Assembly: GCA_023131705.1 (NCBI GenBank)
Contig: JAGLZG010000182.1
Location: 1 to 54,349 of the forward strand
Length of the DNA: 54,349 nucleotides
Reading direction: 5' to 3'
DNA from: Nanobdellota archaeon
Lineage (GTDB): Archaea > Nanobdellota > Nanobdellia > Woesearchaeales > B3-WOES
Shown: one piece after another, positions 1 through 49,142 of the stretch
Layout: every line of letters starts with the position of its first letter
Position numbering within the stretch: position 1 is the stretch's first letter
Made by a program: the position numbers and the translations under genes
The notes under the pieces: model-generated
Seen by the model: only the letters and a program-made list of their open reading frames with translations
Databases searched by the model: none
What the model was told of the DNA's origin: nothing

Positions 1-242
1 AGTAAAACACCCCAATCTGTCAAGTCTATTGAATCTTCTAATTCCAAATCTTCAGCCCAATTATAAAAATTAATAGACCCCTTTCCACCAACCAACTCTT
101 CTTCATAAAAAAGATTCCCTAAGATATCCACATGTTCTAAGGTTATAGTTGAAGGGGAGATATGCCCCCCTTCAACTGTATTACCTAAATCTAACCCACC
201 GAATGTTATAGTAGCTGGACCGAAATTAACTATATTACTCAT
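1..242 (-). CDS. tail tube-like protein paralog, N-terminal 80 codons (ORF runs off the window start; in-frame continuation at 54190..54349)
   Basis: The ATG at 242-240 lies immediately after the stop of 243..743. The N-terminus MSNIVNFGPATITFGGLDLGNTVEGG parallels MSFELGPCQVLYDNADVGATEGG of the adjacent ORF. Confidence 0.6.
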   Translation of the reverse strand, partial: MSNIVNFGPATITFGGLDLGNTVEGGHISPSTITLEHVDILGNLFYEEELVGGKGSINFYNWAEDLELEDSIDLTDWGVL

Positions 243-743
243 CTAAGAAGCCGTTTCGTCTCCTAAAATAGCCACTTCACCTGTGTCACTTGCAAATGCT
301 ATAAAGATTACTTTAATTACTCTCTGTGTGCTTACATCATAAGTAACCTCTTCATCTGCCTTAATCCCAGCTAATGGAAAGGTAAACCACTTATTAGCAT
401 CAGTAGTCACTATCCCATTTACATAAGGTTTAACTATCAACTTCTTAGCATTATCCCTAAGGCTCATTCCTACGTTGGGTATGATAACTACCTTCTGTTT
501 ATTTCCATCTGTAACAACACTTGCCTTATGTGCAAAGGCAAAATTAGCCAAATCTATCGAAGCTAAGCTACATTCAATTACAGCAGAAACCCCTGTGATT
601 ATAGTATCTACAGGCTCACTACCAGACTGGTCTGATTTCAAGTCAGCCGATGCTTCTGCCATCTTTATTGAAACGCCACCTTCAGTAGCTCCTACATCCG
701 CATTATCGTAAAGCACCTGACAAGGACCTAATTCAAAACTCAT
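243..743 (-). CDS. major tail (tube) protein candidate
   Basis: 166 aa with a G-rich RBS. It sits between the head-tail joining genes and, across the junction, the chaperone and tape-measure genes. The call is positional. Confidence 0.55.
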   Translation of the reverse strand: MSFELGPCQVLYDNADVGATEGGVSIKMAEASADLKSDQSGSEPVDTIITGVSAVIECSLASIDLANFAFAHKASVVTDGNKQKVVIIPNVGMSLRDNAKKLIVKPYVNGIVTTDANKWFTFPLAGIKADEEVTYDVSTQRVIKVIFIAFASDTGEVAILGDETAS

Positions 744-755
744 AATTTCCCCCCT

Positions 756-1079
756 TTATATCCTTACTGCCCCAGCAGTAACAGTTGTAATAGCACTATA
801 ACCTACAGTTACTTTCCCTTCACTGCTGTTAAATCGCCCAGTGGAAAATTCTCCAATCCACCTATCTTCTCCCGCAGGAACTGCTACCACAATATCGTGG
901 TCATGACCATAATTACAAGGAACTATGCAATCTATAGTCACATCAATAGAACCTCCACTTCCATTAGACACAACAAGAAAAGTCCTACCATCATTTATAA
1001 AAGCATCACTTAACGCAACTGCCACTAAAGCAGGCTCAAGTCCTGTTAACGCTATCGCTTGCACTGTATAATCAGCCAT
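756..1079 (-). CDS. hypothetical structural protein
   Basis: 107 aa, tightly packed in the late operon between the tail-terminator-like and tube genes. Confidence 0.55.
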   Translation of the reverse strand: MADYTVQAIALTGLEPALVAVALSDAFINDGRTFLVVSNGSGGSIDVTIDCIVPCNYGHDHDIVVAVPAGEDRWIGEFSTGRFNSSEGKVTVGYSAITTVTAGAVRI

Positions 1080-1442
1080 CTATTCCTCCACATAACTTAC
1101 TTTAAAATTTAAAGATGTTACTTGTCTTTTCGCTTCATCAAAACCTTCATTTCCTACTTCCACATCACCCAAAACCGTCCACCCAATACCACTAAGACCT
1201 CGATGGGTTATAAGAAGTTCCCTCAAAGCTCTAACTTCTCTATCCCCCAAACTCCAATCTTTTGATATATAATATACCACTATAAAAGCAGTTTTTAGTG
1301 TCCCTGCTCCAGATGAACTAATGAAACGAGTTACAACACCTTCTTTAATAGGTTCAGGTAGGTAGTTTAAGAACAAGTCTGTCCCACCCACGAACCTCGT
1401 GTTTTGCTCAATAAAGTCCCCAATTTGCTCAATCACGCTCAT
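1080..1442 (-). CDS. tail terminator / tail completion protein candidate
   Basis: 120 aa, abuts the next gene (1079/1080) and has the position typical of a gpU-like protein. The LFLNYLPE-type N-terminal motif is seen in minor capsid/tail completion families. Confidence 0.45.
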   Translation of the reverse strand: MSVIEQIGDFIEQNTRFVGGTDLFLNYLPEPIKEGVVTRFISSSGAGTLKTAFIVVYYISKDWSLGDREVRALRELLITHRGLSGIGWTVLGDVEVGNEGFDEAKRQVTSLNFKVSYVEE

Positions 1443-1899
1443 TTATAATCTCATTCATACTTTTTCTTGCAAAACTTTTTAATCTACTTTTTGCCATCAT
1501 TGCCTCAATCCAAAGGTGATGAAAAGGGTTTCCTATTCTTACAGCATAGTTTTGGTAGTAGGCATAGTTAAAGGTTTTATCAAATGCACTATAGATGAGA
1601 TATATCCTATGAGAAAGCCCACCACCTCTTGATGTAACTGGAGTTCCTGAGCCATTGTTAGTTGTTCCTATTAACTTACTTCCTACAAAAACTGAACCAC
1701 TTTGTCTTAGCCTCCCAGTTTTTACAGGAGGTTGTCTAAGTGTCATATTAACATTGGCTAAAACCTTCTCCGCAACCCTTTCGTGTAGAGTTTGAGATAT
1801 TTTTTCTTTAAGCTTCAAAGCTCTAATCCCCATAGATGCACAAGCCCGAAACTGTCCTTTGCCGCCTTTAAAGGTTCTTCCATATCCAACTTTAATCAT
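1429..1899 (-). CDS. HK97 gp10-like head-tail joining protein candidate
   Basis: 156 aa with a KTGRLRQSG motif and a YAYYQNY segment reminiscent of the HK97 gp10 family, in the expected position. Confidence 0.45.
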   Translation of the reverse strand: MIKVGYGRTFKGGKGQFRACASMGIRALKLKEKISQTLHERVAEKVLANVNMTLRQPPVKTGRLRQSGSVFVGSKLIGTTNNGSGTPVTSRGGGLSHRIYLIYSAFDKTFNYAYYQNYAVRIGNPFHHLWIEAMMAKSRLKSFARKSMNEIINERD

Positions 1900-2204
1900 T
1901 TGTAAATAACCTCTGTGTGATGGTATCTACTCTTTCCATCCATATATCTATAACTCTGCACAATATCACACCTTTTTTCATCCACAATAAAGAAACAAGA
2001 AGTCAGGTCTAAGTCATCCCACAAAAACAGAGTTCCTTTTCCCATCTCAGTCACTCCAATCTGTCCACCCTCTCCTCTTATAAAAACTAAATTACTTCCC
2101 TCTTCAATCCAGCCTTCATAACTACCGACAAGGTTATTTATAGTGTGACCCTTCCATGTTATGGTCTCTTTGTATATTTTTACAGTCGTGTTTATTCTGA
2201 CCAC
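1896..2204 (-). CDS. head closure / head-tail adaptor candidate
   Basis: 102 aa with a 4-nt overlap to neighbouring genes. The call is positional. Confidence 0.45.
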   Translation of the reverse strand: MVRINTTVKIYKETITWKGHTINNLVGSYEGWIEEGSNLVFIRGEGGQIGVTEMGKGTLFLWDDLDLTSCFFIVDEKRCDIVQSYRYMDGKSRYHHTEVIYK

Positions 2205-2494
2205 TTGCTCCTCTCAATAATATTAGCTTGAGAACTACCTGTATGAATTCCTACACTAAGTTGTTTAACATACTGAAGAAAAATCTCTTTATAAGCTTTA
2301 TACCTATCACTCTCTTTCTCATAGAGCTTACCCATTCTATAAGTAGGTTTAAATTTCTTCCACAAAAGCTCAAAAACCTTCATTCCAGCCAGCTTTATAT
2401 CACTATACTCACTTATAAAATGGGCAACTTCATCAGGAGTGAGGTCTAAAAAAGCCTCACTCCCTATCTCAAGTTTTAACTGTTCTTCAGTCAT
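2192..2494 (-). CDS. head-tail connector (gp6-like) candidate
   Basis: 100 aa, helical, and the first gene after the major capsid protein gene. Confidence 0.45.
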   Translation of the reverse strand: MTEEQLKLEIGSEAFLDLTPDEVAHFISEYSDIKLAGMKVFELLWKKFKPTYRMGKLYEKESDRYKAYKEIFLQYVKQLSVGIHTGSSQANIIERSKWSE

Positions 2495-2502
2495 TACCTA
2501 CT

Positions 2503-3480
2503 CTATACAATAGCGTCGTAAAGAATACAACCTAAATCACTTGCAATTAACTTCGGAGTAAGATTCATAATACCTTCAACTCTTAGAGCGTTATTATTCT
2601 GAGGCATCGGAATCCTTCTTATCTCCACTTCATCAGCCTTTTTACCAGCAGTCTTCAAAATATGATAACCACCAGATGGTTCATGTTTGCTCGCCTTGTT
2701 AGGAGCATAAGTTAGTAAGACTTTTTTAGTGGCAAAATAACCTGTATTACTTGAAGTAAGAGTCTCACCCTTCTTTGCAGTCGACTTCACTGCTCCTAAA
2801 ACAACAAGAGAATCCATGTCAAAAAGTTTCTTCAAAGCCCCTGCTGTTACTACCTTATCATCCGTTACCTTTAAAGAATCCTTAATATCAGGATTTGACC
2901 TTAAAACTCTATAAACGTCAGGAGTCATTAACATTCTATTAGGCTTGAAACCTGTCACTGCTCTTACTGCATCCTGAAACTTCAGAATATCATCAATAGG
3001 AGTTGAGTTGGTGTAATCACTCCACTGGGTGAAATCTCCACCAGCGCCACTTGCTTTACCCTGTAAATCTGAACCCCATAAACCAGTAGCTATAAACTGA
3101 CTAACAAAGTTAGCGATTACAATAAGTTTTAGTCTATTTATAACAAACCTTGTTCCATCTGCAACAGCATCAAAGGGACTATCTGACTCTTCATTATCTC
3201 TTGCAGTTATGTCTTTGTGAAAAGACACATCCTCAACACTATAAGGCTGGGGTGTTACATCATAGTCTCCGCCCATACTCTCAGCTGCCCCTGTTCTCTT
3301 ATAGTCATTTACATTACCTAATCTAAGCCAATCACCTTTGTCATACTTGGCTATATTCCCTGAACTCTTTTTTGTCTTTATAACTGGAAACAACGAAAAA
3401 GGTTCAAAGTCTAATTCCTGCTCATATTTTACAGCTACGCCTCTGATAAATTCTGTATTTATTTGGTCATACCAGTGCAT
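2503..3480 (-). CDS. major capsid protein (HK97 fold, lambda gpE/Phage_cap_E-like)
   Basis: 325 aa located after the protease, scaffold and decoration genes. The N-terminal FEPFSLFPV...G.IAKYDKG pattern resembles E-like capsid proteins. Confidence 0.75.
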   Translation of the reverse strand: MHWYDQINTEFIRGVAVKYEQELDFEPFSLFPVIKTKKSSGNIAKYDKGDWLRLGNVNDYKRTGAAESMGGDYDVTPQPYSVEDVSFHKDITARDNEESDSPFDAVADGTRFVINRLKLIVIANFVSQFIATGLWGSDLQGKASGAGGDFTQWSDYTNSTPIDDILKFQDAVRAVTGFKPNRMLMTPDVYRVLRSNPDIKDSLKVTDDKVVTAGALKKLFDMDSLVVLGAVKSTAKKGETLTSSNTGYFATKKVLLTYAPNKASKHEPSGGYHILKTAGKKADEVEIRRIPMPQNNNALRVEGIMNLTPKLIASDLGCILYDAIV

Positions 3481-3492
3481 TCTATCACCTCC

Positions 3493-4269
3493 CTATATAA
3501 TCCGAACTCTAATGAGTTTCTTTATGTTGTTAGTATCTTCTGCTGTGATTGCCTCAAGAGCTATTGCAAATGGGAAACTTCTTAGTAAAGTAGATTCCAA
3601 TTCCACAGTTATCGCTCCACCAGCAAGAGTTGTTAAAGTTCCTGTAAAGTCCACTGAAAGTCTGTCACCTATAGCAAGAGCAAGATGAGCACCTGTAGCA
3701 GTCAAAGCAGGAGACTGAACAGTATTAGCCGCTCCCTTTAAGTCTATCTTTGTGGTATTAAGCAAGTCATCACCAGCCGTAGGGTCTTCAGTTCCCTGAC
3801 ATCTTTTTATTGTTGCGGCTACAGCCGAACCATCATTACCAGCTACTGCATGAACTTCACTAATTTTTGTCACGGTGCACGCAAAAGGTGCTGTGAAAAA
3901 GAAGCCATCAACAGAAGCTGCTGCAATAGCATGTGAAGCAGGAAATCTTCCATTAAAACTTGCTATCCACTTCATAAGAAGTCCACTGATATTACTACCA
4001 GCACCATCAAGCTGAATCGCAGCTGAAGTTGTTAATGGTTCTCCTATAGCAATACTTACATTCGGCAAAGCCATAACATAGGCATAACTCTCACCACCTA
4101 CTATTCCAACACACACATCTCCACTTGCCTGTCCACCATCTTTGATAATACCCAAAGAAGCCTCTCCATCGGCATCACAAAGTGTATTATCAGTTCCAAT
4201 GGCATAATATTCCTTCGTATTCAGGTTTTCCCCTGAAACAAAATTAGTCAATATTTGATTTCTCTCCAT
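3493..4269 (-). CDS. head decoration protein candidate (DUF2190-like N-terminal half, duplicated)
   Basis: 258 aa, Gly/Ala-rich and beta-rich, lying between the scaffold and capsid genes. Confidence 0.45.
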   Translation of the reverse strand: MERNQILTNFVSGENLNTKEYYAIGTDNTLCDADGEASLGIIKDGGQASGDVCVGIVGGESYAYVMALPNVSIAIGEPLTTSAAIQLDGAGSNISGLLMKWIASFNGRFPASHAIAAASVDGFFFTAPFACTVTKISEVHAVAGNDGSAVAATIKRCQGTEDPTAGDDLLNTTKIDLKGAANTVQSPALTATGAHLALAIGDRLSVDFTGTLTTLAGGAITVELESTLLRSFPFAIALEAITAEDTNNIKKLIRVRII

Positions 4270-4272
4270 TAT

Positions 4273-5079
4273 CTAACCCTCCTCACTTTTGCAGAGTTCT
4301 GGATTTTCCTTGCAAAAGATAACATAAGCATCTGCGTCACTTTCTATATGTCTATCTTTCTTGATTTTCTCAATCCCATCTTTAACTAACTTCTCCACAT
4401 CCTCATCGCCTTTCTTACCTATACCTTTTCCTAAGTCCTTCAACATCTTCTGCATTCCTACAATTTTGTCAACTAAGGTGTTAATCTCCTTTTCCTTACC
4501 TTCCGCATAGACATCCATGATATCCTTAGTAATAGACTCACCCACCTTAATTTCGATGTCCTTCTTAATTGCATCTTTCTTTAACTGAACTTCTCTCTTC
4601 CCAGCTTCTACTTCCCTTTTACCAGCTTCTACCGCATCCTTTTCCAGTTTCTCAAGTCTATCCTTAATTACCTGAGGAACATCCTTCAAGATAGTATCTG
4701 GGTCAGCTTTCTTTAACTTAGCCAATTCAGCTACAGCAACATCTAAGTCCTTCTTTACCTTATCATACTTCTCCAACTTCTCCTTGTCCTCTTTGGAAAT
4801 CTCTCTCTTTTTAACATGATACTTCATGTCCTTATCTACAGTCACATCTATGTTGTCATTAAAAACAAGATTATCTCCCTCTTTAGGAAGAAAGCTCTTC
4901 AACTCCTCCTTAACCACTGCTGGCACATCCTCTCCACTAAGTAGCAAACTTGCTAACTTAATCTTATCACTCATATCAAGACCTCCATCTTTGATTAGCA
5001 AAAATTTCTCACCATTTATTGGATTGCCTGCTAAAGCAACCTCTTCAATTAACAACTTCTTGTATAGTTTTCCCATCAT
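4273..5079 (-). CDS. scaffolding protein
   Basis: 268 aa, Lys/Glu-rich coiled coil with an internal VEAGKRE VEAGKRE repeat. It is ATGA-coupled to the protease gene. Confidence 0.6.
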   Translation of the reverse strand: MMGKLYKKLLIEEVALAGNPINGEKFLLIKDGGLDMSDKIKLASLLLSGEDVPAVVKEELKSFLPKEGDNLVFNDNIDVTVDKDMKYHVKKREISKEDKEKLEKYDKVKKDLDVAVAELAKLKKADPDTILKDVPQVIKDRLEKLEKDAVEAGKREVEAGKREVQLKKDAIKKDIEIKVGESITKDIMDVYAEGKEKEINTLVDKIVGMQKMLKDLGKGIGKKGDEDVEKLVKDGIEKIKKDRHIESDADAYVIFCKENPELCKSEEG

Positions 5080-5705
5080 TCAACTCCAAAACCGCCGATT
5101 GAAAATCCTTTGATTATACCTTCTTTCACCTCCTTCCTTAACTTCTCATCATCCACAACACTTCGCATTAACCAAGTCCCCTCTTTCACCACAACATCAC
5201 TCAACTTCATATCACAAGGAGCTATATAACTTTCCACAATAGACACTTGGTTCTTTGTCAATAGATGTGTATGTCTATAAGACTGATTCATAAAATCTTT
5301 GTTAAACTCATAACAGGCATCTTCTATCGCTTCCTTTGTGTAAGAATCTCCATCTTTGTCCTTCACTTCAGGAGACAACACAATTCCAAAAACCTGTTTC
5401 CCTTCACTATCTTTATTGATGACTTTAAAAATTATGTCTTTTTTCTTCTGAAAATACTTCTCAAGAAGAACCTTCGCTTTACCCTCTACTTCAGCATAAT
5501 GATATTGAGCAGCTCTTATTATCGCCGCCCTTACAAGACCATAATGATACTCTCCAGACTTCGGGTCTTTCACAGGGAATTTTCTCTCGCCTTCAGGAGA
5601 TACCAAGAGGAAGTAATTTGCAGGATACTCCTTTCTCCGTTTTTGTGTAAGATATGCTTCCTTTACATAGTCTGGAATTAAACTATCTTTAAAGACATTT
5701 GGCAT
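5076..5705 (-). CDS. XkdF-like prohead serine protease
   Basis: 209 aa. The pattern FGIVLSPEVKDKDGDSYTKEAIEDA...HTH...ESYI matches the XkdF (Peptidase_S78_2) family layout. It lies between the portal and scaffold genes. Confidence 0.6.
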   Translation of the reverse strand: MPNVFKDSLIPDYVKEAYLTQKRRKEYPANYFLLVSPEGERKFPVKDPKSGEYHYGLVRAAIIRAAQYHYAEVEGKAKVLLEKYFQKKKDIIFKVINKDSEGKQVFGIVLSPEVKDKDGDSYTKEAIEDACYEFNKDFMNQSYRHTHLLTKNQVSIVESYIAPCDMKLSDVVVKEGTWLMRSVVDDEKLRKEVKEGIIKGFSIGGFGVE

Positions 5706-22487: not shown

Positions 22488-22796
22488 ATGAGTATATTTA
22501 TGCAAGCAAGAGGCTTAACTGATGATAATGTTTTTTTCGGGGATTCTGGGGTTTTTGAATCCAAGTTTGATGACCTCAATACTCTGTTTAAATCACTTCA
22601 AAGAAGTTATGGAAAATGTATAGGTAAACTTTACCATAAAAATGGAGATTGTATTGGGTGGAAGTTTAAGAAGAAACTTCCTTACAAAGTAACTTATATA
22701 GTTATAACCCATGTTACTCTACATAAGAAAATGCCTGAAGTAACAACTAAGTATTTTTATAAAAAAGTTATGAGAAGGAAGAAAGGAGAAAGTTAA
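22488..22796 (+). CDS. hypothetical basic protein
   Basis: 102 aa from the ATG at 22488 with a GAAGGAGG RBS. Confidence 0.55.
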   Translation: MSIFMQARGLTDDNVFFGDSGVFESKFDDLNTLFKSLQRSYGKCIGKLYHKNGDCIGWKFKKKLPYKVTYIVITHVTLHKKMPEVTTKYFYKKVMRRKKGES

Positions 22797-23146
22797 TGAA
22801 ATCTAAAAAAGCTACTATTAGTTTGAATAAAGTCTTTGTTGGAGATGAACTTTTTTATATGGTTAAGTATTGGAAAAATGTAAAAAGCATCCAGCATTTA
22901 CCAGAAGATTATATAAGTGGAAATATTTATTTTTATGGTTATAAAAGACCTAATTTAAAGGGAGAATTTAGACAATATTTACATCTTCATATGGGATTGT
23001 TAGACTTTAGAATTACAACAGGTAAATTAATTCCAAAAGAGTATTGGGAGGATAATATTTCTCCTGCTTTAAAACAAGCAGCAAAGAGATTACAACATAT
23101 AAATCAAAGAGATAGTTGGTCTGGAGAAGTAACATTAGAGATTTAA
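22796..23146 (+). CDS. WSG-tail paralog 1 (domain only)
   Basis: 116 aa ending ...PALKQAAKRLQHINQRDSWSGEVTLEI. It aligns with the C-terminal ~110 aa of 25896..26483 and 27152..27736. Confidence 0.65.
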   Translation: MKSKKATISLNKVFVGDELFYMVKYWKNVKSIQHLPEDYISGNIYFYGYKRPNLKGEFRQYLHLHMGLLDFRITTGKLIPKEYWEDNISPALKQAAKRLQHINQRDSWSGEVTLEI

Positions 23147-23181: not shown

Positions 23182-23270
23182 TTCTACAGAATAAATAGAG
23201 AAGATGGAATTTCCCAAGAGTTTCACTCCAAATAGGAGCTCTTAGAAAATTTCGTTTTGGGAGGTGTCAA

Positions 23271-23558
23271 GTGACAGCAAAGAAGGAGACAACAAAGAAA
23301 AAGGGAACAACAACGAGGAAAACTGCAACAAAGAAGAAGATTACCCCAAAGGTAATCTTAGCTTTCGAGGGAGAGGAAGAGACTTACGAGGTAAGTGAAA
23401 TCACACCTGAGTTGCTTAGAAAAAAAGCAATAGAGGCAGGGATTGGAAAATTCGTTGTTACGGTAAACGGCTTTGCCATTGAGAGTCCAAGTGATTTTCC
23501 CGCCTTAGTAGGAAAGGAATACATCAAAATCCTTCCTTATGATAGGTGGGCTCTGTAG
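23271..23558 (+). CDS. ubiquitin-like beta-grasp (ThiS/MoaD-like) protein with a Lys/Thr-rich N-terminal tail
   Basis: It has a GTG start 6 nt after GGGAGG. The ~65-aa core KVILAFEG..ETYEV..ITPELLRKKAIEAGI..KFVVTVNG..EYIKILP follows a beta-beta-alpha-beta-beta pattern. It is the first gene of the E2/E1/JAB cassette. Confidence 0.55.
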   Translation: MTAKKETTKKKGTTTRKTATKKKITPKVILAFEGEEETYEVSEITPELLRKKAIEAGIGKFVVTVNGFAIESPSDFPALVGKEYIKILPYDRWAL

Positions 23559-23581
23559 GCTCTTTTGAAAAAAGAAGGGTT

Positions 23582-23598
23582 GGGGACTTAAAGTCCCC
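23582..23598 (+). promoter_or_regulatory. GC-rich hairpin GGGGACT-taa-AGTCCCC between the Ubl and E2-like genes
   Basis: Perfect 7-bp stem with no T-run. It ends 6 nt before the AAGGAGG RBS of the next gene. Confidence 0.45.
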
Positions 23599-23616
23599 GC
23601 CCTCAAGGAGGTCTTG

Positions 23617-24711
23617 ATGATAATAGAAGCCTATGTTGACGGTTCAACCTTTCATGTCAAAATAAAAATCACTTCAAAAATAAAACAAGCATTACATGAA
23701 AGATTTAAAGAATCCTCTGAATGGCAAACTTGGTTTCAAGAAGTAACCTCTCATTGTCGGTGTAATGATGGAGGTTATATAACAATGTCAGGTAGTATTG
23801 AAAGTATAATCAACTTTGACATAGCATATGACTATAATGAAGGGGCTGGTGAGTATACTCATTACAACTATACTTCTCATGAAGATGCAGAAGAGCGGCT
23901 CAGGTTATTTAACTTTTGGTTAAAAGATTATGGAAACCATGCTTTAAAAATTCTCCATGATTATTTTGTAGACCCATCTGATTTTTTGGGAAAACTAAAG
24001 GCTGATTGGCAACCAGCATTTCCAATTGAAGTTTCTCTTAATGGAAATGTATTCAAGCTTGTCGCAACAAACCAAAAGGATTTAGGAAAAAGTCTCACTG
24101 ATGACCTTAATAGACAATATACAACTTTGGTAGACATGTTCAAAAACCAGATAGGTGCTTATAAAGTATCATTAAAAATTAAAAGTGATGAACTTATAGC
24201 AAATAGTCTGCCTACTTTCCCAAAGTGGTTTACCTTTAACTCCCCTATGAAAAGACCTATAATTCTCTCTTACAACTTCCCATTCAATGCTGTGCAATTT
24301 TCAACAGTTATCTTATATAAACCAGAAAAATGGGTAACTGATGGTAAACTTTATAGAATAACAAATCCTATAAAGAGTGTGAAAGTCTGGTTTACTTTTT
24401 GTATTAGAGATAATAATAGAACAAATTTGAAAACTTGCCATTTACAAAGACCTATTGGGAAACTCTTTGAACATTATCACACATTAGACACTGGCTATGA
24501 TTGTCTCGGAAAAACAAAGGAAGTAGAATTAACATCTATGTTATCTTTAATAAACTTTATAGAAAGTATTGAGTTATCTCTCAGAACCATAGACAGAGAT
24601 GGGATAGCTTATAAAGCTCCAAGAAATAAATATCTTCCATCGATAGATAAATATAGCTTAGAAAAAGTAACAAAGGAGGAAGGGTGGATAGAAAAAGACA
24701 AGACGACTTAG
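23617..24711 (+). CDS. E2-like (UBC-fold) protein with an unknown ~200-aa N-terminal domain
   Basis: HYHTLDTGYDCL has spacing identical to the UBC active-site HPNIxxxGxICL. The Cys codon is at 24502..24504. A beta-rich segment precedes the motif. Confidence 0.55.
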   Translation: MIIEAYVDGSTFHVKIKITSKIKQALHERFKESSEWQTWFQEVTSHCRCNDGGYITMSGSIESIINFDIAYDYNEGAGEYTHYNYTSHEDAEERLRLFNFWLKDYGNHALKILHDYFVDPSDFLGKLKADWQPAFPIEVSLNGNVFKLVATNQKDLGKSLTDDLNRQYTTLVDMFKNQIGAYKVSLKIKSDELIANSLPTFPKWFTFNSPMKRPIILSYNFPFNAVQFSTVILYKPEKWVTDGKLYRITNPIKSVKVWFTFCIRDNNRTNLKTCHLQRPIGKLFEHYHTLDTGYDCLGKTKEVELTSMLSLINFIESIELSLRTIDRDGIAYKAPRNKYLPSIDKYSLEKVTKEEGWIEKDKTT

Positions 24712-25259
24712 GTCTTCTTATTCCTGAAAAAGTTTGTATTGTCGGGGCAGGTGGCACAGGGGTTTGGACCTCTATTCTGCTTGCCCAAGTTGGAGTTAAG
24801 GAACTTATTATCTTTGATGACGACACGATTGAGGAACATAATAGAAATAGACTTCCTTTCAGGAAAGAAGATGTCGGAAAGAAGAAAGTGGTGATTTTAA
24901 AAAACCTCATAACAACTACCTATGAAGAGTGTGTAGTATTCGCCTTTGACATTAAGTTTTCTGCAGACTTCGTGATTGAAAAACCTGAATATGTAATAGA
25001 TTGCACAGATGACTTCAAATCCCAGATGAACATAGTCAAGTGGGCTAAGGAAAACAGCGTCTACTACATAAGAGCGGGTTCAAAGGAAAATCACATAACT
25101 GTAACAGACTTTGTCACAGGTTGGGACTCTGATTATGAGGAAGAAGATGGTAAGTGCGGGGTAACTATTTCCCAATGGATAGTGCCTCAAGTGATAGTCG
25201 CCTCATCTGTCGTGAGGTGGATTTGTCTTGGAAAGAAAATTAAAATAGAGGAGATTTAG
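24684..25259 (+). CDS. minimal ThiF/MoeB-type E1-like adenylation domain protein
   Basis: The motifs are IVGAGGTGVWTS (GxGxxG), FDDDTIEEHNRNRL and VIDCTDDF. It has a GTG start after AAGGAGG and is only 191 aa. Confidence 0.8.
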   Translation: MDRKRQDDLGLLIPEKVCIVGAGGTGVWTSILLAQVGVKELIIFDDDTIEEHNRNRLPFRKEDVGKKKVVILKNLITTTYEECVVFAFDIKFSADFVIEKPEYVIDCTDDFKSQMNIVKWAKENSVYYIRAGSKENHITVTDFVTGWDSDYEEEDGKCGVTISQWIVPQVIVASSVVRWICLGKKIKIEEI

Positions 25260-25260
25260 A

Positions 25261-25881
25261 ATGGCAAAGAAAAAAGCTAAGAAATTTTACAAGTGGTGGG
25301 AAGATGAGAAAGAAGAATATTGGGACTCAGGACTGGAAGCCCCGATTGAAAGTTGTAGTCTTGTGAAATGCCCTATAATTTACCTCCTACCTGAGGTTGT
25401 GGGACAAATTCAGTTTATGATGAAAAAGTATCCTAAAACTGAATGGGCGGCAGATTTACTTGGAGAGAAAGTAGACAATGACTTCTACATAACAGGTATT
25501 TCTGTTTTTAAACAGACTGTAACCAGCGTGACAGTTAAAAGAGAAGAGCCGTCTTGTAAAGGGGCAATAGGAGTTACCCATTCTCATCACACTATGGGAA
25601 ATAACTTCAGTGGGACTGATGATGACTACCCTAATAGTAACCATGACTTAAGTGGCGTTATCTCAATTTCTGATGATGGAGAAAACCTAATAGGATTAGA
25701 CATTAAGTTCACTGTTCGAGTAGAGACTCCTTGTGGAAAGAAAGTGAGATTTGATGAAGTGCCTGTTAGGGTTCTTTTTTCTCTTCAAGAAATTAACCTC
25801 AAAGGTAAGATTACAGAAGAGAAACAAATCATGCCTCAGGCTGGTTATTATATGTCTGCAGGTTTAACAAACTATCTTTAA
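25261..25881 (+). CDS. JAB/MPN (JAMM) metalloprotease
   Basis: The JAMM motif is intact: upstream Glu (TEWAADLLGE) and HSHHTMGNNFSGTD = HxHx7SxxD. Confidence 0.8.
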   Translation: MAKKKAKKFYKWWEDEKEEYWDSGLEAPIESCSLVKCPIIYLLPEVVGQIQFMMKKYPKTEWAADLLGEKVDNDFYITGISVFKQTVTSVTVKREEPSCKGAIGVTHSHHTMGNNFSGTDDDYPNSNHDLSGVISISDDGENLIGLDIKFTVRVETPCGKKVRFDEVPVRVLFSLQEINLKGKITEEKQIMPQAGYYMSAGLTNYL

Positions 25882-25895
25882 AAAAAGGAGGAGAA

Positions 25896-26483
25896 ATGAT
25901 ATTTTATAGTGAAGGTAAAGATAGAGACATCTCAAAACATACAGAAAGATATCTTAAATGGTTGCTATTAGACTTAAAATCTGATAGGATTAAAATTGAG
26001 AAAGTCGGAATAGGTAATCATTTTCTTGAAGATACTTCAATAAATGGATTTGGAAGGATACCCAGAGGCAGGAAAACACTTACAGTTACTTATTCCATGA
26101 AGGATTTATTGTCTAAAAAGAAAGAGCAAAAAGTAATGGAGAATGGTAAAGCTGTTTTTTATCTACGAGGGTTTGGTAGAGGATATAAAGAATATTATGA
26201 ATTAAAAGGTTGGAAAAATGTGAAAAATCAGCCTCAATTACCATTCTCTTATAAAGAAAAAGCTCCTTATTTTTATGAACTTAGAGAGTGTAAAGACAAG
26301 AAAGAAATATATCTTGTTACAGGTAAAGACGAATGTATTGTATGGTATCTAAGAGAAGGTCAAATTATTTCTAAAGACCTCTGGGATAAAAAGTTTTTCC
26401 CTGCATTTGAAGAAGCAGGAGCAAAACTTCATGATATTCTACAAGAAAAGAAGTGGTCTGGTGAAATAGAAGTTAGGATATAA
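25896..26483 (+). CDS. WSG-tail paralog 2 (N-terminal extension + paralog domain)
   Basis: 195 aa ending ...PAFEEAGAKLHDILQEKKWSGEIEVRI, with an AAGGAGG RBS 14 nt after the JAB stop. Confidence 0.65.
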   Translation: MIFYSEGKDRDISKHTERYLKWLLLDLKSDRIKIEKVGIGNHFLEDTSINGFGRIPRGRKTLTVTYSMKDLLSKKKEQKVMENGKAVFYLRGFGRGYKEYYELKGWKNVKNQPQLPFSYKEKAPYFYELRECKDKKEIYLVTGKDECIVWYLREGQIISKDLWDKKFFPAFEEAGAKLHDILQEKKWSGEIEVRI

Positions 26484-27151: not shown

Positions 27152-27736
27152 ATGAATCATGAAGTGAATGAAGAAGTAAGAGTTAAATCGTTAAAAGAGT
27201 TATGGGCATTATCTTGTGAGAAGGGTATTATAAGAATGCCTTCAGGGTGTGTTTTTGTAGAAGACATGAAAAAGTTCTGTGGTAAAATTGTTACAATAGC
27301 AACTAAAAATGAGAGTGGAATTTATAAAAACAGGTATAAGGTTAAAGAAGACAAAGATAATTGGAGCTGGTCAGATGAAATGCTTGAGAGACTTCCTAAG
27401 AAATCATTTATAAAGCAAGCCATTTTCCACTTAAAGAAGGTGATTGTGAGTGATAAAGAATATTACAGCCTTATGGAGTGGGAGAATGTGCAAAAGCTTG
27501 ATGACTTACCAAAGGAATATTTAATTAGGCGTCCATGCTTTTCAAGGAATAGTGCAGGCAAACCTCATGTAACACTCATAACCAAACATACCACAGTGTA
27601 TCTTGTTATAGGAAGACGTTACACAAAATCTACAATGGAAAAAATTATCATCCCCGCACTTAAGGAAGCAGGGAAACGGTTGAGTTTGATTTTGAAGAAG
27701 AAAAAGTGGAGTGGAAAAGTTGAAGTCAAGATATAA
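27152..27736 (+). CDS. WSG-tail paralog 3 (N-terminal extension + paralog domain)
   Basis: 194 aa ending ...PALKEAGKRLSLILKKKKWSGKVEVKI. Confidence 0.65.
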   Translation: MNHEVNEEVRVKSLKELWALSCEKGIIRMPSGCVFVEDMKKFCGKIVTIATKNESGIYKNRYKVKEDKDNWSWSDEMLERLPKKSFIKQAIFHLKKVIVSDKEYYSLMEWENVQKLDDLPKEYLIRRPCFSRNSAGKPHVTLITKHTTVYLVIGRRYTKSTMEKIIIPALKEAGKRLSLILKKKKWSGKVEVKI

Positions 27737-27919: not shown

Positions 27920-28693
27920 ATGAAATACAAAGAACCTGTCGGTAATGAAGAGTGTGAATTCAAACTAATTCCTATCAACCAGCTTAAAACATCTCCTTTC
28001 CAAAGGGAGATAAGTAAAGCCCTTGTGAAAAACCTATCACAATCCATGATAAGGGGTTTTATAGGTGTTATAACTGTCTATCAAGAAAGTGAAGATAGTT
28101 ATGTAGTTTTAGATGGTCAACACAGACTTGAAAGTGTTAAACCCATGCTACCCCCTGAGGCGGAACTTCCAACTATTGTCGTGCCGAAAAAATATATGTT
28201 CCAGCCCCTCATCTACAACATCGAGAAAGCAGACAATACAAAAGACCTTTGTCTGAAACTTTTTAAGGAGTATGAATGGTTTGTGCAGAATCAAGCGGAA
28301 GCAAAAGAGAGTGATGTGTTCCAAGTAGTAACAATGGGTCGACCCCATCTTTTAAGTCTCGCTTATAGTTTCGGGGTTTGTGGTCTAATCTCACCCTCCT
28401 TAGTAGACATGATTACTAAAAAGCTGGACTCTTTCCTAACAACTCCCGTTTTTGAAGCACGGGAAGTAAGAATTAAAAGAGGGCAACTTCTTAAGGAGCT
28501 GGAAGAAAAAGCAGATGCAATATGTGCTGGATATGATGTAAAGGATTTTAATTTAAAGAAGTCAGTTATATCAAGAACTTCAACTAAACTTTGGGGTAGA
28601 GTTAGGTCGCTTGACATGAGTTTTGAAGAAGGGATATCTATGTTGATGAATGAACTCGATGAGAGTGATTTCAGTTGGCTTGAGAGGACTTGA
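27920..28693 (+). CDS. ParB/Srx-fold protein with a DGQHR motif (DndB-like)
   Basis: IPINQLKTSPFQREIS...VVLDGQHRLESV. Confidence 0.6.
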   Translation: MKYKEPVGNEECEFKLIPINQLKTSPFQREISKALVKNLSQSMIRGFIGVITVYQESEDSYVVLDGQHRLESVKPMLPPEAELPTIVVPKKYMFQPLIYNIEKADNTKDLCLKLFKEYEWFVQNQAEAKESDVFQVVTMGRPHLLSLAYSFGVCGLISPSLVDMITKKLDSFLTTPVFEAREVRIKRGQLLKELEEKADAICAGYDVKDFNLKKSVISRTSTKLWGRVRSLDMSFEEGISMLMNELDESDFSWLERT

Positions 28694-44789: not shown

Positions 44790-47700
44790 CTAAACTCCTA
44801 TTATTGTAATATTACAAGTTCCCCCAACAAAATTTCCAGCCAAATTATATAACTTAATAGTCATACTACTACTACTTTGTGCTGTTATTAAGGGAACTAA
44901 AACAGTTGAACCAACTGGTGTTACTGTTATTGCAGGAATATCATTAAACCCACTTAAAGTAAATGTTGTTCCACCTGATGCAATAGTTTGATTTACAAGG
45001 TGTCCAAAAAGATTTACTACATTTCCTAAATAAGTTAGAGTATGTAAAATAATTCTTTTTGAAGTATCTGAAGTTGTAAGGGCTATTTTAAGTTTAAAAT
45101 ACCTAAAAGTAAATAAAGCCCCCATACTTTTATATATATCTCCTGTAATTTGTCTTTGTGTTAAAGTTTCCCAATTATTGTCATTTAAGTTAGGTTTATT
45201 TGTTCCCCAGTTTGTATTATCTGTTGAATACTGAGCTGATATTGTTAACCCTGTTACAGAAGCTAAGTCCTCTATCATAGTATATCTTAAAGCCATCTGT
45301 AATGTTTTTGAAGCTCCTAAATCCATAGAAGCAGATGTCCAATTACCCGAACTACCTATAGGTTTATCCCAAGTTCCTGTATCCCATACAGCTCCACCAT
45401 CATCCCATTTTGTTGCTGTTATTATTCGTGTTGAAACTCCATAATCCCCATGAGTATCAGCATCTATGTTTGTTCCAGAACCATTAGACATATCAGTATC
45501 TGTCAAATCATGCTCATACTCATCCCCACCACTTAAAACAGTCTTCACATAACTCATAGCTTGGTTTAAATCACCATAAAGAGTGGAAACGAATTTATCA
45601 GCTATAATTGTATTAGCTATTATTTTGTCTCCATCTAAACTTTCTATTTTTGCATTTTTTATAATTGCATCTTTTATATTTGCTTCATTAGCTATTATTT
45701 CATTAGCTCCTATTAAATCTGCTGTAATAGTAGATGCCTGTAAAAGTCCAGCATGCTGTATTTTATTTTGTGTAGCAGGATAAACTTTATCGTTTACAAC
45801 ATCATAATAAGCCATTAACCAAATATCTGCTCCTATTGTAGGTCTTGTATCTGAATAATGAAAAGTAGTAGGTGTATCATTTTTATCCCACCAAATATAT
45901 TTTAACCCTGTGTTTCCTGATGAAATTGAGTAGACTGTATTTTTATATACCAAATTCCCTGTAGTCCAAGTCAATCCAGAAGAAGTAGACCAATCTATTC
46001 CACTCATAAGAGGTATATCTAAATTATAATCTTTTGCTTGCACTGACAAAGCTGTTGTTACTATTTCAGGAGACTTATTCCCCTCACCAAAAGGGTCAAC
46101 AGCACTAATTGCTACATAATATGTATCCCCACTTTCACATTCGAAAGTATAAGAATCTCCTTGAATAAAGGCAACTTTTGTATCCGCCGTTGCTACTCCT
46201 GTATAAACATAATATCCTATTATATCATTATCAGAAACCAAATTCCACTTCACAGCTATTTTTGAAAAGTGTGGTGTTAAAGTCGGTGCTGATGGAGTTG
46301 ATGGAAAAGGATTATTTGCTGCACCTATTATTGTCTCTGAACTCTGCCCCCACTTATCTACTACTACAATAGAAAAAGAATAATCTCTTTGTGAAGGTTG
46401 ATTAATTATAAATTCATTTGTTTCGACAGAAACTGTTTTTGTTGTTCCTTCAGTATAAGTTACCTCATAATGACTAATTGCCGAACAAAGAGCTTTCGTC
46501 CACCAAATATGAAGTTTTGTATCAAATGTATTACTTATTAATGCTCCTAAAGGAAAAAAAGGTTTTTGTAAAGAACTCTTAGTTATTATACTCACCTGTG
46601 AAGCTTCATCAGGAGATTCTTCTCCATACACAGCTACACCACAAACTGCAAATGTATATTTACCTCCAAATACACTATCAAAAATAACATCAAGTGCTGT
46701 TGTTCGTGTGTATCCATAATAATGCCAAGCATCATAAACATCAGGACTTCCATAATTAGTTTCCCCAAACTCTTCTAATCCAAAACCTTCATCAGAATGT
46801 ATTTTGTAATAAATTTTCCATCTTGATACATCTTCTCCACCTCTCCAGAAAAGTTTAAACACATCCTTATCTCCTGAAGGTGAAACCTGTGTTCCTTGTT
46901 CTACTGTCAAATCATGGGCAACTAAATCATAAGAAGGAGCAGGCAAAGCAGGGAAAGATGGTATATCTGTATAGATAGAAGCATTATATTCTATCCAAGA
47001 AATGTGTCTGCGTAAATCGTCTTGTCTATCAATTTCCATAATACGAACTAATTTATAAGGTAATGAAGAAAGTCCTACTGCATATATATCATATTTACTT
47101 GGGACATCCCCTGCAGCAATAGTAAGTAAAATAGTATCTGTTGTATCTGTCCCAGACTGTGTCCAAGTTTTTTCTATTTGTGTGTCATCCTGAAGTCGCC
47201 AAACTATTTTATACTCTTTAGTATCTTCAAATGTCAGTTCCTTATCTAAAACCACCTGTGTTATTGTTGCACTAACTATCCTACCACCATCCCCCCATTG
47301 TGGGACATCATGTTGGAGTTTTACTACATCACCAACTGTACAAGCAATAGCATCTATATCTGCATCAAATTCACCTGCTCTGGTTAGATATTTATTATAA
47401 TTCAACATATACTGTGCATGTTTTGTAGCTGCCGTATAATCTGTTATACTATAAAGAGTTATACTCTTTTTTATCTCAGTTTCAGTATCCCAACTGGAAA
47501 GATATACCATAAATTGTTCTCGTTGATAATCATGGTCTTCATTCCAAAAAGTTATTTCTGCACAATTTGCCCTTCCCTTTAAAGGCAAAAAGTGTTCTTT
47601 AAAACTATCTTCTATAATATTCGAAACATTAAATAATTGAACTGCAGAAGTTACTTGGTCAATAGTTACAGTTATTTTTGTGCCTTCTATTTTCAGAATA

Positions 47701-49142
47701 CCCTTACTTTCCATTGCAATTTTCAAGGCAGCGTCCCAAACAGACATAGAGCCATCCAAATAAATATTACACTCTATATTATTTGTTGTGCAGAAATTCG
47801 CCCAAGTTGTAAATGAAGTTAAATCTATTGTATATTCCCCACCATAAGATGTGTTTGTTAAGACATCATAAACTGCCCAAGCAGGATTATTTGAAGGTTT
47901 TGTGTAAAGGTTTGAATTTACTCCAATATCTGTAGAAACAAAATTACCTCTATCTACCAATGAAGTAATATTTGGTAAACTTCCACTTAGTTGATTTGTG
48001 GCAAGTGCTTGAATACCTACAAGTGATACACAAGGATAAGAATAACTATCATAGATAATCTCACTAAATCCTTCTAACTTTACATCATCCCTTTGTCTAT
48101 TATTTGTATTATCTGCTGTTTGTCTTGTCAATTTAATTTTATATTTTCCTGCATCCAATCCTTCTTTTTCTTCACTATATCTAAGAGCAGATGCTTGAGC
48201 GGCGGAATAAGAAGCTGTTTTCCAATTTACATAAGCATCCCAGCCAGTTCCATTCCATTTAGCATATTCTAATTTAATCTTTACTGTTCGACTATCCAAT
48301 CCACCATCATCATTTGAATAAAAAAGACCATAAAGAAACAGGAAATTAACCTTCAATCCCTCTACTACATTACCTGTAGTTTCTACATATATAGGTGTGT
48401 TGTGTGTAAGTAAACTACCAGATGTATGTGCTGTTTCATTCTTATTCATATATGGAATTGTAGTTTGGTTATTTACACCAAGTCTTGTTGAAAGTGTAAT
48501 ATCGTGATAGTTTGTAGAAGGTTGATTATTTATTTTTATAGCAGAGATTGAACTTACCTGATGTCCAGTAAGAGCAACTTCCATATTCAAATATTGATTT
48601 TGACCATTTAGTAATGTGGAAACAGCAATTACATTTCCACCAACTCTCCTTTTACCATACAAAACAGGAATAGAATTACCTTGCTTTACTATAGACTGAA
48701 TTCCTTGCCAACCATAAGTTTGCTCAGACATATCTTCAAGTAAGTCTATTTTCGGAATAGGAAAAATAGTATTTATAAGCATTGTTCCAGCAAGCATTAT
48801 TCCTGTTGATATCAAAGCTCCTGTTGTAGTTGTTAAAGCATATCCTAATAAAGGAGGAATAACAACAGCGGCAATTAAAACTGCTATAGAAGCGATTGCT
48901 CTTAGTATATCCTTACCATCTCCACCTTCAATAATAGGAACAATAATTATTTCTGATTCATAAGGAATTAAGAGATTATATTCTTCTTCACTAATAACAT
49001 TTCCATTTAAGGATACAATTACATCTTTATCATCTTCATTCAAAAAATCATTAACTTTTGCAAAAGGAAAATAAGGTCTGGTCTCAACCATACAATGGTT
49101 TGAAATTGGATTTATTACATGAGTGATTTTTACATCTACCAT
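44790..49142 (-). CDS. fusion of lambda gpI-like tail assembly protein (Ubl + hydrophobic segment) with gpJ-like central tail fibre/host-specificity protein
   Basis: Residues 1-180 (LNGNVI..IIIVPIIEGG, a Gly/Ala/Ile-rich hydrophobic stretch, QGNSIPVLYGKRRVGGNVIA) align with lambda gpI. The rest carries gpJ hallmarks (SYPCVSLVGIQA, NNPAWAVYDVLT, VGDVVKLQHD..GGRIV) plus FN3-like repeats. Confidence 0.85.
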   Translation of the reverse strand: MVDVKITHVINPISNHCMVETRPYFPFAKVNDFLNEDDKDVIVSLNGNVISEEEYNLLIPYESEIIIVPIIEGGDGKDILRAIASIAVLIAAVVIPPLLGYALTTTTGALISTGIMLAGTMLINTIFPIPKIDLLEDMSEQTYGWQGIQSIVKQGNSIPVLYGKRRVGGNVIAVSTLLNGQNQYLNMEVALTGHQVSSISAIKINNQPSTNYHDITLSTRLGVNNQTTIPYMNKNETAHTSGSLLTHNTPIYVETTGNVVEGLKVNFLFLYGLFYSNDDGGLDSRTVKIKLEYAKWNGTGWDAYVNWKTASYSAAQASALRYSEEKEGLDAGKYKIKLTRQTADNTNNRQRDDVKLEGFSEIIYDSYSYPCVSLVGIQALATNQLSGSLPNITSLVDRGNFVSTDIGVNSNLYTKPSNNPAWAVYDVLTNTSYGGEYTIDLTSFTTWANFCTTNNIECNIYLDGSMSVWDAALKIAMESKGILKIEGTKITVTIDQVTSAVQLFNVSNIIEDSFKEHFLPLKGRANCAEITFWNEDHDYQREQFMVYLSSWDTETEIKKSITLYSITDYTAATKHAQYMLNYNKYLTRAGEFDADIDAIACTVGDVVKLQHDVPQWGDGGRIVSATITQVVLDKELTFEDTKEYKIVWRLQDDTQIEKTWTQSGTDTTDTILLTIAAGDVPSKYDIYAVGLSSLPYKLVRIMEIDRQDDLRRHISWIEYNASIYTDIPSFPALPAPSYDLVAHDLTVEQGTQVSPSGDKDVFKLFWRGGEDVSRWKIYYKIHSDEGFGLEEFGETNYGSPDVYDAWHYYGYTRTTALDVIFDSVFGGKYTFAVCGVAVYGEESPDEASQVSIITKSSLQKPFFPLGALISNTFDTKLHIWWTKALCSAISHYEVTYTEGTTKTVSVETNEFIINQPSQRDYSFSIVVVDKWGQSSETIIGAANNPFPSTPSAPTLTPHFSKIAVKWNLVSDNDIIGYYVYTGVATADTKVAFIQGDSYTFECESGDTYYVAISAVDPFGEGNKSPEIVTTALSVQAKDYNLDIPLMSGIDWSTSSGLTWTTGNLVYKNTVYSISSGNTGLKYIWWDKNDTPTTFHYSDTRPTIGADIWLMAYYDVVNDKVYPATQNKIQHAGLLQASTITADLIGANEIIANEANIKDAIIKNAKIESLDGDKIIANTIIADKFVSTLYGDLNQAMSYVKTVLSGGDEYEHDLTDTDMSNGSGTNIDADTHGDYGVSTRIITATKWDDGGAVWDTGTWDKPIGSSGNWTSASMDLGASKTLQMALRYTMIEDLASVTGLTISAQYSTDNTNWGTNKPNLNDNNWETLTQRQITGDIYKSMGALFTFRYFKLKIALTTSDTSKRIILHTLTYLGNVVNLFGHLVNQTIASGGTTFTLSGFNDIPAITVTPVGSTVLVPLITAQSSSSMTIKLYNLAGNFVGGTCNITIIGV

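Follow-up and report, generated by a model that had tools for sequence, protein, structure and literature searches.

So far, conjugation of ubiquitin-like proteins (Ubls) in prokaryotes is known as a weapon of hosts against phages, in the Bil systems, in Type II cyclic oligonucleotide-based antiphage signalling systems (CBASS) and probably in the Bub systems. Bil systems conjugate a Ubl to the central tail fibre of the phage; their genes follow the order Ubl, E2 (conjugating enzyme), deubiquitinase (DUB) and E1 (activating enzyme), the E1 consists of an inactive adenylation, an active adenylation and a catalytic cysteine domain (IAD-AAD-CYS), and their Ubls carry a conserved Gly followed by up to nine residues, which are removed by the JAB peptidase. 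Bub E1s are minimal homodimeric enzymes with no catalytic Cys, in which an invariant Tyr of the crossover loop forms a Ubl~Tyr oxyester. In Type II CBASS the conjugated C-terminus is Gly or Ala after a variable penultimate residue, and a Gly-to-Ala change still supports thioester formation. Among tailed phages, the sole earlier-described pairing of a Ubl-like with a JAB protein is that of lambda/T1 TAPI (Ubl) and TAPK (JAB plus NlpC/P60); viruses of Asgard archaea have E1-like genes alone, and plasmids and integrative and conjugative elements (ICEs) carry the uncharacterised ParB-related, ThiF-related cassettes (PRTRC). Here we examined a 54,349-nt stretch of DNA (contig JAGLZG010000182.1, positions 1 to 54,349; hereafter the window) and a cassette of four genes within it, which encode a small Ubl-like protein, a protein of a new family called X below, a minimal E1 and a JAB metalloprotease. 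With slightly better than even confidence, we read this cassette as a phage-encoded module for Ubl activation and conjugation, in which X would act as the E2 equivalent and which would be expressed together with early replication and recombination genes. The original prediction, made from the letters of the window, had described four co-directional, overlapping or adjacent open reading frames (ORFs), and all of them are present:

23271-23558, forward strand: precursor of the small ubiquitin-like protein, 95 amino acids (aa) from a GTG start, recognised from its ORF and family alignment
23614-24711, forward strand: protein X, 365 aa from a TTG or 364 aa from the next ATG
24684-25259, forward strand: minimal E1, 191 aa, matching Pfam ThiF and overlapping the X gene by 28 nt
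25261-25881, forward strand: JAB/JAMM metalloprotease, 206 aa, starting 1 nt past the E1 stop

The four families co-occur strictly and in a set order. The motif strings on which the prediction relied were all found as well, namely HYHTLDTGYDCL (with the Cys297 codon of X at 24502-24504), GAGGTG, DDDTIEEHNRNR and HSHHTMGNNFSGTD. Each of the six full-length relatives of X lies beside a ThiF gene, plus a JAB gene where the contig extends far enough, and has an ORF of 75-145 aa directly upstream. Using the JAB as probe, we collected 75 further loci from IMG/VR and metagenomes and scored them with hidden Markov models (HMMs) of the four families. The order small protein-X-E1-JAB, whose search in phage and prophage databases had been proposed as a check, was recovered in ~45 independent viral/metagenomic loci on contigs of 9-240 kb; 40 of them were exact, and in the remaining ordered loci X, the small gene or the whole cassette was duplicated. 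Loci that showed E1-JAB alone or JAB alone were mostly contigs ending upstream. The arrangement is well past chance, because the same four families stand in the same order at ~45 other loci. The variants include two full cassettes in tandem (L059:424-7081), two adjoining X paralogues (L023/L024:2301-4043) and a small-protein gene present twice (L050:2044-3148). In one locus (L009) the order is permuted to E1-JAB-small protein-X; the small-protein gene is always directly upstream of X, and this pair stays together in the permuted locus too. In addition, one contig with a full cassette also carries a second trio devoid of X (L003:12933-14651), consisting of a small protein of 90 aa, a ThiF protein of 217 aa with a Tyr-type loop and a JAB of 247 aa.

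The cassette was recovered from viral and metagenomic sequences. A JAB pattern scan of one genome each of 185,579 bacterial/archaeal species found no cellular or prophage copy, and BLAST searches (DNA and protein) with the cassette, with X, and with the X and JAB of the large clade found no match in 50,697 GenBank phage records, among which only distant ThiF-like genes surfaced. The cultured Flavobacterium phage FpV4 (NC_041872, record 60819-68001; L085, locus 113-5215) has relatives of the cassette E1 and JAB: gp50, annotated as 'thiamine biosynthesis protein', matches the E1 HMM at 1.9e-18, and gp51, annotated as hypothetical, matches the JAB HMM at 1.3e-14. Further upstream, visual inspection showed 'YMHSH...NFCIG' in gp52 and, at the start of gp53, a Ubl-like segment ending ...KSGG; profile comparison left them unsupported as homologues of X and the Ubl (P = 0.14 and 0.07), and they serve as a lead only. 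FpV4 may be a tractable, distant version of the system.

Judged by its sequence, the 191-aa protein is a bare ThiF/MoeB-type adenylation domain of the E1-like superfamily. It matched Pfam PF00899 (ThiF) at 1.3e-24 with 87 bits (cut-off 28), its relatives in the PDB were TcdA, MccB (2e-9), PaaA (2e-8), UBA5, ThiF and MoeB, and in PADLOC it matched the E1 half only of CBASS Cap2-type E1-E2 models, at 1e-11. The protein contains R5-Q6, G21xGGxG26, D45xD47, N53xN55-R56, K68 and D106-C-T-D109. The residues required for adenylation are all kept in the family: among 57 aligned E1 members, R5, Q6, G21/23/24/26, D45, D47, N53, R56, K68, D106 and D109 each reach a conservation of at least 80%. No separate catalytic Cys (CYS/SCCH) domain, inactive adenylation domain or ubiquitin-fold domain (UFD) was found in the 191 aa, which hold the adenylation domain only. 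The family as a whole can be considered a bare E1 devoid of a CYS domain, because its median length is only ~199 aa, and the reduction of the E1 to its adenylation domain, as originally described, is supported. Cys158 (codon 25155-25157; G-K-C-G-V-T) is the putative catalytic residue of the window E1; it lies in a short loop before a conserved S-(Q/x)-W-x-x-P segment, at what is presumably the position of the crossover-loop Cys of ThiF, MoeB and UBA5. This loop Cys is confined to the clade of the window, and G-Y stands at that place in 51 of the 57 family members. The residue covaries with the Ubl terminus: a penultimate Trp goes with the loop Cys in 6/6 cases and a penultimate Ala, Val or Pro with the loop Tyr in 34/34, a pattern that fits a direct contact of the E1 loop and the Ubl tail.

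The JAB gene likewise preserves its active site. The JAMM residues E61 and H107-S-H109-x7-S117-x2-D120 (codons 25441-25443 and 25579-25620) are in place, and E61, H107, H109, S117 and D120 do not vary among the 6 cassette JABs compared, so the description of an intact JAMM protease stands. The Pfam Prok-JAB match of the window protein (3.6e-5, 24.1 bits) falls just short of the cut-off of 25, and its relatives reach up to 36 bits. PRTRC protein A was the sole NCBIfam match of the JAB (E = 0.025), and no PADLOC model was matched by the Ubl, X or JAB.

The substrate predicted for these two enzymes, the 95-aa protein, is made up of a basic K/T-rich N-terminal tail, a core of ~60 aa and the end ...ILPYDRW-A94-L95. 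Approximately 40 of 45 non-redundant members of its family have a conserved Gly that closes the motif (P/S)(Y/F)(D/E)x(A/V/W/P)G and is followed by 0-6 non-conserved residues; Ala94 of the window protein occupies the position of this Gly, and 3 other members also have Ala there. Ubl precursors that are processed by a JAB characteristically end in this way, with a short tail behind a C-terminal Gly/Ala. This terminus, together with weak Pfam matches to ThiS in 2/42 members (E = 0.011) and to TGS in 1/42, agrees with the proposal that the 95-aa protein is a Ubl precursor. Our hhalign comparisons with hand-entered reference sequences (human E2s, ThiS, MoaD and ubiquitin) are treated as leads only. 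Family profiles aligned to MoaD/ThiS non-significantly (P = 0.23-0.28) and in the right register, with ...GD.I.I.P-x4-G of the family on the MoaD terminus ...GDEVAFFP-x4-G, and the comparison with ubiquitin was not significant. Direct evidence on the fold is thus weak, and the small protein may adopt a beta-grasp fold. Its N-terminal tail (23271-23380, forward strand) is a Lys/Thr-rich, low-complexity segment of ~35 residues (MTAKKETTKKKGTTTRKTATKKKITPK...), which is present in the closest relative (L004) and missing from most family members; it might bind nucleic acids or, being rich in Lys, act as an acceptor when chains are formed.

For protein X, a word-indexed protein search returned no relatives, and with the full-length protein an exhaustive HMMER scan covering 1.8 billion representative proteins returned only 6; a search with its domain profile then recovered 119 further clusters, none of them annotated and some located on contigs of 120-240 kb, which defines X, by sequence, as a new family of >120 members that matches nothing in Pfam, PADLOC, PHROGs or NCBIfam. 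X consists of a variable N-terminal region (~1-150), a long helix (~154-196) and a conserved C-terminal domain (~200-360). An N-terminal domain of ~200 aa, as originally described, is thus present, but it actually comprises ~150 aa that vary between clades and then a helix of ~45 residues. Matches of the N-terminal region to ERp29/Windbeutel and FosA were rejected as chance, being below cut-offs and within a low-confidence, non-conserved region.

Across the family, the conserved domain keeps the motif F-x-H-Y-H-x(3-9)-(D)-C-(W)-G almost without change, and H287-Y288-H289 (codons 24472-24480) and Cys297 are identical in 96/96 aligned sequences. The HYH...C element therefore has the look of an active-site signature, as judged from this conservation, and loss of the Cys in homologues, which had been named as an outcome that would speak against a conjugating enzyme, was not observed. 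The spacing of His and Cys is that of the ubiquitin-conjugating (UBC) catalytic loop in the window member, as claimed, but it ranges from 3 to 9 residues in the family. The more confident of two AlphaFold2 models of X contains a long helix, a beta-meander of five to seven strands, an extended loop with HYH and Cys297, and a further helix, which is how the elements of a minimal E2 are ordered; HYH and Cys297 lie in coil, after the final strand and before the helix that follows, and the W-x-x-P-helix after the Cys resembles the W-S-P-A-helix of E2s. The likeness of X to a minimal E2 appears limited to topology and motif position. A first model, built from 7 sequences, had predicted local distance difference test (pLDDT) values of 70-89 in the C-terminal half, and its best PDB neighbour was the ubiquitin E2 variant (UEV) domain of Tsg101, which has the UBC fold (E = 0.56, probability 0.47, template modelling (TM) score 0.42), with four more UEV/E2 entries within the top 50. 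A second model of residues 150-365, built from 96 sequences, reached a pLDDT of 88.4 and a predicted TM score (pTM) of 0.72.

Putting these components together, we propose the following pathway, in which each covalent intermediate is inferred, as are the function of X and the presence of a target protein. First, the JAB would remove the residue(s) after the conserved C-terminal Gly/Ala, in the window taking off Leu95 and exposing Ala94. Second, the minimal ThiF-type E1, presumably a homodimer, would adenylate the exposed Ubl C-terminus with ATP, and the activated Ubl could be captured on the short C-terminal loop of the E1, by Cys158 in the clade of the window and by Tyr in most relatives. Third, the Ubl would be passed to Cys297 of X with the assistance of the neighbouring H287 and H289 in catalysis, and X would transfer it to a protein of the host or the phage, which the variable N-terminal region of X is likely to recognise. 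The JAB probably also reverses the conjugates.

Several results weigh against such a conjugation module. The first concerns X itself. That the 364-aa protein has the UBC/E2 fold, as had been predicted, was not borne out. Searches of Pfam, PADLOC, PHROGs and NCBIfam gave no E2 family at E <= 1, no E2 family was among the top families listed for 46 X relatives, a PDB sequence-profile search with the X family alignment gave no E2, and hhalign of the X family against four human E2s gave P = 0.18. With the second model, Foldseek found nothing significant in the PDB, the best hit being an unrelated protein (E = 0.49), while the Tsg101 UEV, still the best UBC-fold hit, dropped to rank 18 (E = 2.8, TM score 0.39), and no significant match was found in BFVD. 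Membership of X in the UBC fold was thus tested and not demonstrated; that X works like an E2 is our leading inference, drawn from its topology and the position of its motif. Second, the window Ubl has Ala and not Gly at its reactive position, a PDB sequence-profile search with the small-protein family alignment found no Ubl, and searches of Pfam, PADLOC, PHROGs and NCBIfam yielded nothing informative on the small protein. Third, the E1 is closest in sequence to adenylyltransferases of sulfur-carrier and tRNA-modification pathways, and the covariation between the E1 loop and the Ubl tail, suggestive as it is, amounts to one clade split and not to independent evidence. Finally, the module has no known conjugation target.

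The failure to place X in the UBC fold can also be read in a more far-reaching way, which we put forward only tentatively and consider doubtful: X might be a structurally new, non-UBC conjugating enzyme for Ubls, that is, an independent invention of E2 activity, which would work with the smallest known E1, in Cys and Tyr types, and tag host or phage proteins early in infection, across phages from 54-kb siphoviruses to 240-kb myovirus-like phages. Possible tagged proteins under this reading include the adjoining replication factors or host immune proteins.

The genomic setting of the cassette bears on all these readings. The window encodes a major head protein, portal, large terminase, NrdD, tape measure protein, primase, lambda-J-like central tail fibre and family A DNA polymerase (PolA), and in addition a dCTP deaminase, an exonuclease and a Sak4-like annealase. 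It is the 54-kb genome of an uncultured, siphovirus-like tailed phage, and the structural and replication phage genes on the same contig bear out the view that the cassette is phage-borne. The window terminase shares only ~28% identity with those of cultured bacteriophages. The public record labels the contig as part of a 'Nanoarchaeota archaeon' metagenome-assembled genome; this label is probably a binning artefact. The structural and replication genes of the window all resemble tailed bacteriophage counterparts. No tRNA genes were found in the window, and neither an integrase nor a repressor was found among the window ORFs tested. The other features relevant to the cassette are the following:

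22796-23146, forward strand: ORF of 116 aa, first of three paralogues that flank the cassette
25896-26483, forward strand: ORF of 195 aa, second flanking paralogue
27152-27736, forward strand: ORF of 194 aa, third flanking paralogue
27920-28693, forward strand: ParB-like/GmrSD_N-like gene (Pfam 7e-5, PHROG ParB-like 4e-8)
44790-49142, reverse strand: J-like central tail fibre of 1450 aa, of which residues 49-175 match the PHROG 'tail assembly protein' family
49519-50148, reverse strand: Phage_tail_L gene, upstream of the J-like fibre gene

Downstream of the window cassette lie the ParB-like gene (2 kb away, and also present in L004) and genes for the exonuclease, annealase, methyltransferase, polymerase and primase. 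In the largest clade (L012-L036 and others), the cassette comes immediately after two clamp-loader subunit genes (phrog_168, phrog_225) and a clamp-sized gene, and in other clades its neighbours are a primase/helicase-type ATPase and an exonuclease. From these neighbours, across clades and in the window, the cassette is part of the early/replication module in many phages and not of the tail module. Maturation of the phage's own tail tip, one of the roles originally suggested, was accordingly rejected as the primary role, as the cassette never lies in a tail module and sits with replication and recombination genes. The clamp-sized gene upstream of the small-protein gene encodes 245 aa without a profile match (e.g., L036:1904-2644). 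PCNA, the sliding clamp of eukaryotes, is ubiquitinated, and a Ubl system adjoining a clamp-like gene is intriguing in this respect; shared phage ancestry may suffice to explain it. The paralogous genes of unknown function, which had been noted around the cassette, are real: they share a C-terminal domain of ~115 aa ending in WSG(E/K)(V/I)..(E/R/K)I, and the closest relative has a fourth copy (L004:4247-4834). They match no family and, because they are missing from the cassette neighbourhood in other clades, stand outside the conserved module. As for the J-like fibre of the window, it may be a fusion of a tail assembly protein with J, as Iyer et al. noted for TAPI-TAPJ.

Among the alternatives to a conjugation module, a sulfur-carrier pathway deserves the most attention. 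In this pathway, the small protein would be of the ThiS/MoaD/CysO/QbsE type, the JAB would expose its C-terminus, the E1 would adenylate it for conversion to a thiocarboxylate, and X would be a novel Cys-dependent enzyme that transfers or uses the sulfur, for example in thio-modification of nucleic acids or cofactors during infection. ThiF, MoeB, TcdA and the E1 of the small archaeal modifier proteins (SAMPs) are indeed the top-scoring relatives of the cassette E1, which like ThiF and MoeB has no separate catalytic Cys domain; trios of Ubl, E1 and JAB are documented in sulfur-assimilation neighbourhoods; X is unrecognisable as an E2; and the cassette lies amid nucleotide and DNA-metabolism genes. 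Sulfur carriers typically end in Gly-Gly, however, and the terminus here is a single Gly/Ala after Ala, Val, Pro or even Trp. Furthermore, the conserved neighbours (clamp loader, exonuclease, primase/helicase) include no rhodanese, PP-loop ATPase, cysteine desulfurase or other sulfur enzyme, and all E1 scores fall far below the NCBIfam ThiF/MoeB equivalog cut-offs. We therefore hold a sulfur-carrier pathway to be unlikely.

Counter-defence, another of the roles originally suggested, could proceed by interference without modification of a dedicated target: the JAB would strip Bil- or CBASS-type conjugates of the host, for instance from the phage's own J-like fibre, and the Ubl, E1 and X would be decoys that saturate or misdirect the host machinery. 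Such a role would suit a phage with a J-like fibre, given that host Bil systems conjugate their Ubl to the central tail fibre, and the Cap3 protein of CBASS and BilC of Bil are JAB isopeptidases; transcription of the cassette with early genes would suit it as well. A lone JAB would nevertheless be enough for deconjugation, whereas all four genes and the adenylation and Cys/His sites are kept in ~45 loci, which implies a complete forward pathway, and the JAB family is not detectably near the Cap3/BilC models (no PADLOC match). We consider interference improbable.

Still less probable is a phage-carried antiviral system of the Bil type, which would tag the proteins of competing phages for superinfection exclusion. 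Phages are known to carry defence genes in general, the parts list equals that of Bil (Ubl, Cys protein, E1 and JAB), and the E1 matches the PADLOC CBASS E1-E2 models at 1e-11. In many large phages of lytic type, however, the cassette forms part of the core replication block, where it follows the clamp loader and a clamp-like gene; it was absent from the pattern scan of the cellular genomes, is accompanied by no integrase or repressor among the window ORFs tested, and differs from Bil in gene order and E1 architecture. Highly improbable, finally, is non-conjugative tailoring of the MccB/PaaA type. The E1-like enzyme would then adenylate the C-terminus of the small protein to give a product such as a peptidyl-nucleotide or a cyclised terminus, and X would serve as a tailoring enzyme of an unrelated kind that depends on Cys/His or on a metal. 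In favour of this, the E1 has MccB and PaaA high among its PDB relatives, the H-x-H...(D)C of X could equally be a metal site and X has no E2 match. Against it, the protein to be modified is not a short peptide but a folded, conserved domain (~60 aa) whose sequence pattern is Ubl-like, trimming by a JAB down to a terminal Gly is a hallmark of Ubl systems, and no export or immunity gene is found among the conserved neighbours.

If the cassette is indeed a Ubl conjugation module, the consequences would be considerable. A complete, conserved and widely distributed phage-borne Ubl/E1/JAB module would reverse the picture of prokaryotic Ubl conjugation as a weapon of the host, and viruses of prokaryotes would run a protein-tagging chemistry of their own, like eukaryotic viruses. 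The third component, X, may be categorically new: its >120 unannotated clusters would represent either an E2 diverged beyond recognition or a new solution to Ubl transfer. The two E1 subtypes, with loop Cys or loop Tyr co-varying with the Ubl C-terminus, would bear on the evolution of thioester and oxyester chemistry in E1s. In addition, hundreds of 'hypothetical' genes in viral metagenomes would gain a name and a testable hypothesis. No phage Ubl-X-E1-JAB cassette was described in the literature covered (open-access papers and bioRxiv), which is not proof of novelty.

The cassette fails the defining features of Bil, Bub, Type II CBASS and PRTRC, and it shares with each of them, and with other Ubl-related systems, a different part of its equipment. 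Like PRTRC of plasmids and ICEs, it is a mobile-element cassette with a ThiF-family protein, and in the window a ParB-like gene lies 2 kb downstream; unlike PRTRC, its E1 and JAB score 31.3 against a cut-off of 144.75 bits (PRTRC_ThiF) and 14.1 against 101.8 (PRTRC_A), and other PRTRC components were not detected. TAPI/TAPK are tail-module genes without a partner that resembles an E1 or E2, unlike the cassette, which stands in an early/replication operon and includes an E1; in the window, the tail module (tail L and J-like fibre) lies ~20 kb from the cassette and on the other strand. The combination of a small protein with a ThiS-like sequence pattern, a bare adenylyltransferase and a JAB recalls ThiS/MoaD with ThiF/MoeB, CysO with Mec+ and QbsE with QbsD. 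These sulfur-carrier pairs differ in their Gly-Gly terminus from the single Gly/Ala with a bulky or variable penultimate residue seen here, and the cassette is further set apart by its obligatory fourth Cys/His protein, by neighbours other than sulfur-metabolism genes and by its place in a phage replication module.

The likeness to Type II CBASS Cap2/Cap3 lies in the pairing of ThiF-type adenylation with a JAB isopeptidase and in the Gly/Ala C-terminus with a variable penultimate residue, and the Cap2-type E1-E2 models, in their E1 half only, were the best PADLOC matches of the cassette E1. Unlike Cap2, an E1-E2 fusion with a CD-NTase as substrate, the cassette E1 would act on a small, putatively beta-grasp-like protein, and the cassette includes no cyclase or effector gene. 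With Bub (6E/DUF6527) it has in common a minimal, homodimer-type E1 devoid of a CYS domain and a JAB tightly coupled to the E1, by adjacent genes in the cassette and by fusion in BubCD. The catalytic crossover-loop Tyr of BubCD/BubBD has its likeness in the near-invariant Tyr of the 51/57 relatives, the window itself having Cys158. The E2 of Bub, by contrast, uses Ser and has a diverged but recognisable UBC fold, whereas in X the residue is an invariant Cys and no UBC fold can be recognised; the scanned neighbours contain no match to DUF6527 (the BubE protease), the Ubl is not fused to an E2, and the cassette is encoded by phages.

Type I/II BilABCD, the bacterial ISG15-like antiphage operon, also comprises a Ubl, a Cys conjugating protein, an E1 and a JAB peptidase, and its Ubl also has a conserved C-terminal Gly with a short non-conserved tail. 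In contrast to the Bil order Ubl-E2-DUB-E1, the cassette is ordered Ubl-X-E1-JAB in ~45 loci, all viral or metagenomic, and its E1 is a single adenylation domain of ~190 aa instead of IAD-AAD-CYS. The recognisable E2 of Bil, with its C...H (CEHH) motif, differs from X, in which the His motif lies upstream of the Cys and no UBC fold is detectable, and the Ubl, X and JAB of the cassette have no PADLOC match. Furthermore, Bil systems are found in bacterial defence islands, whereas the cassette resides in the replication module of phages.

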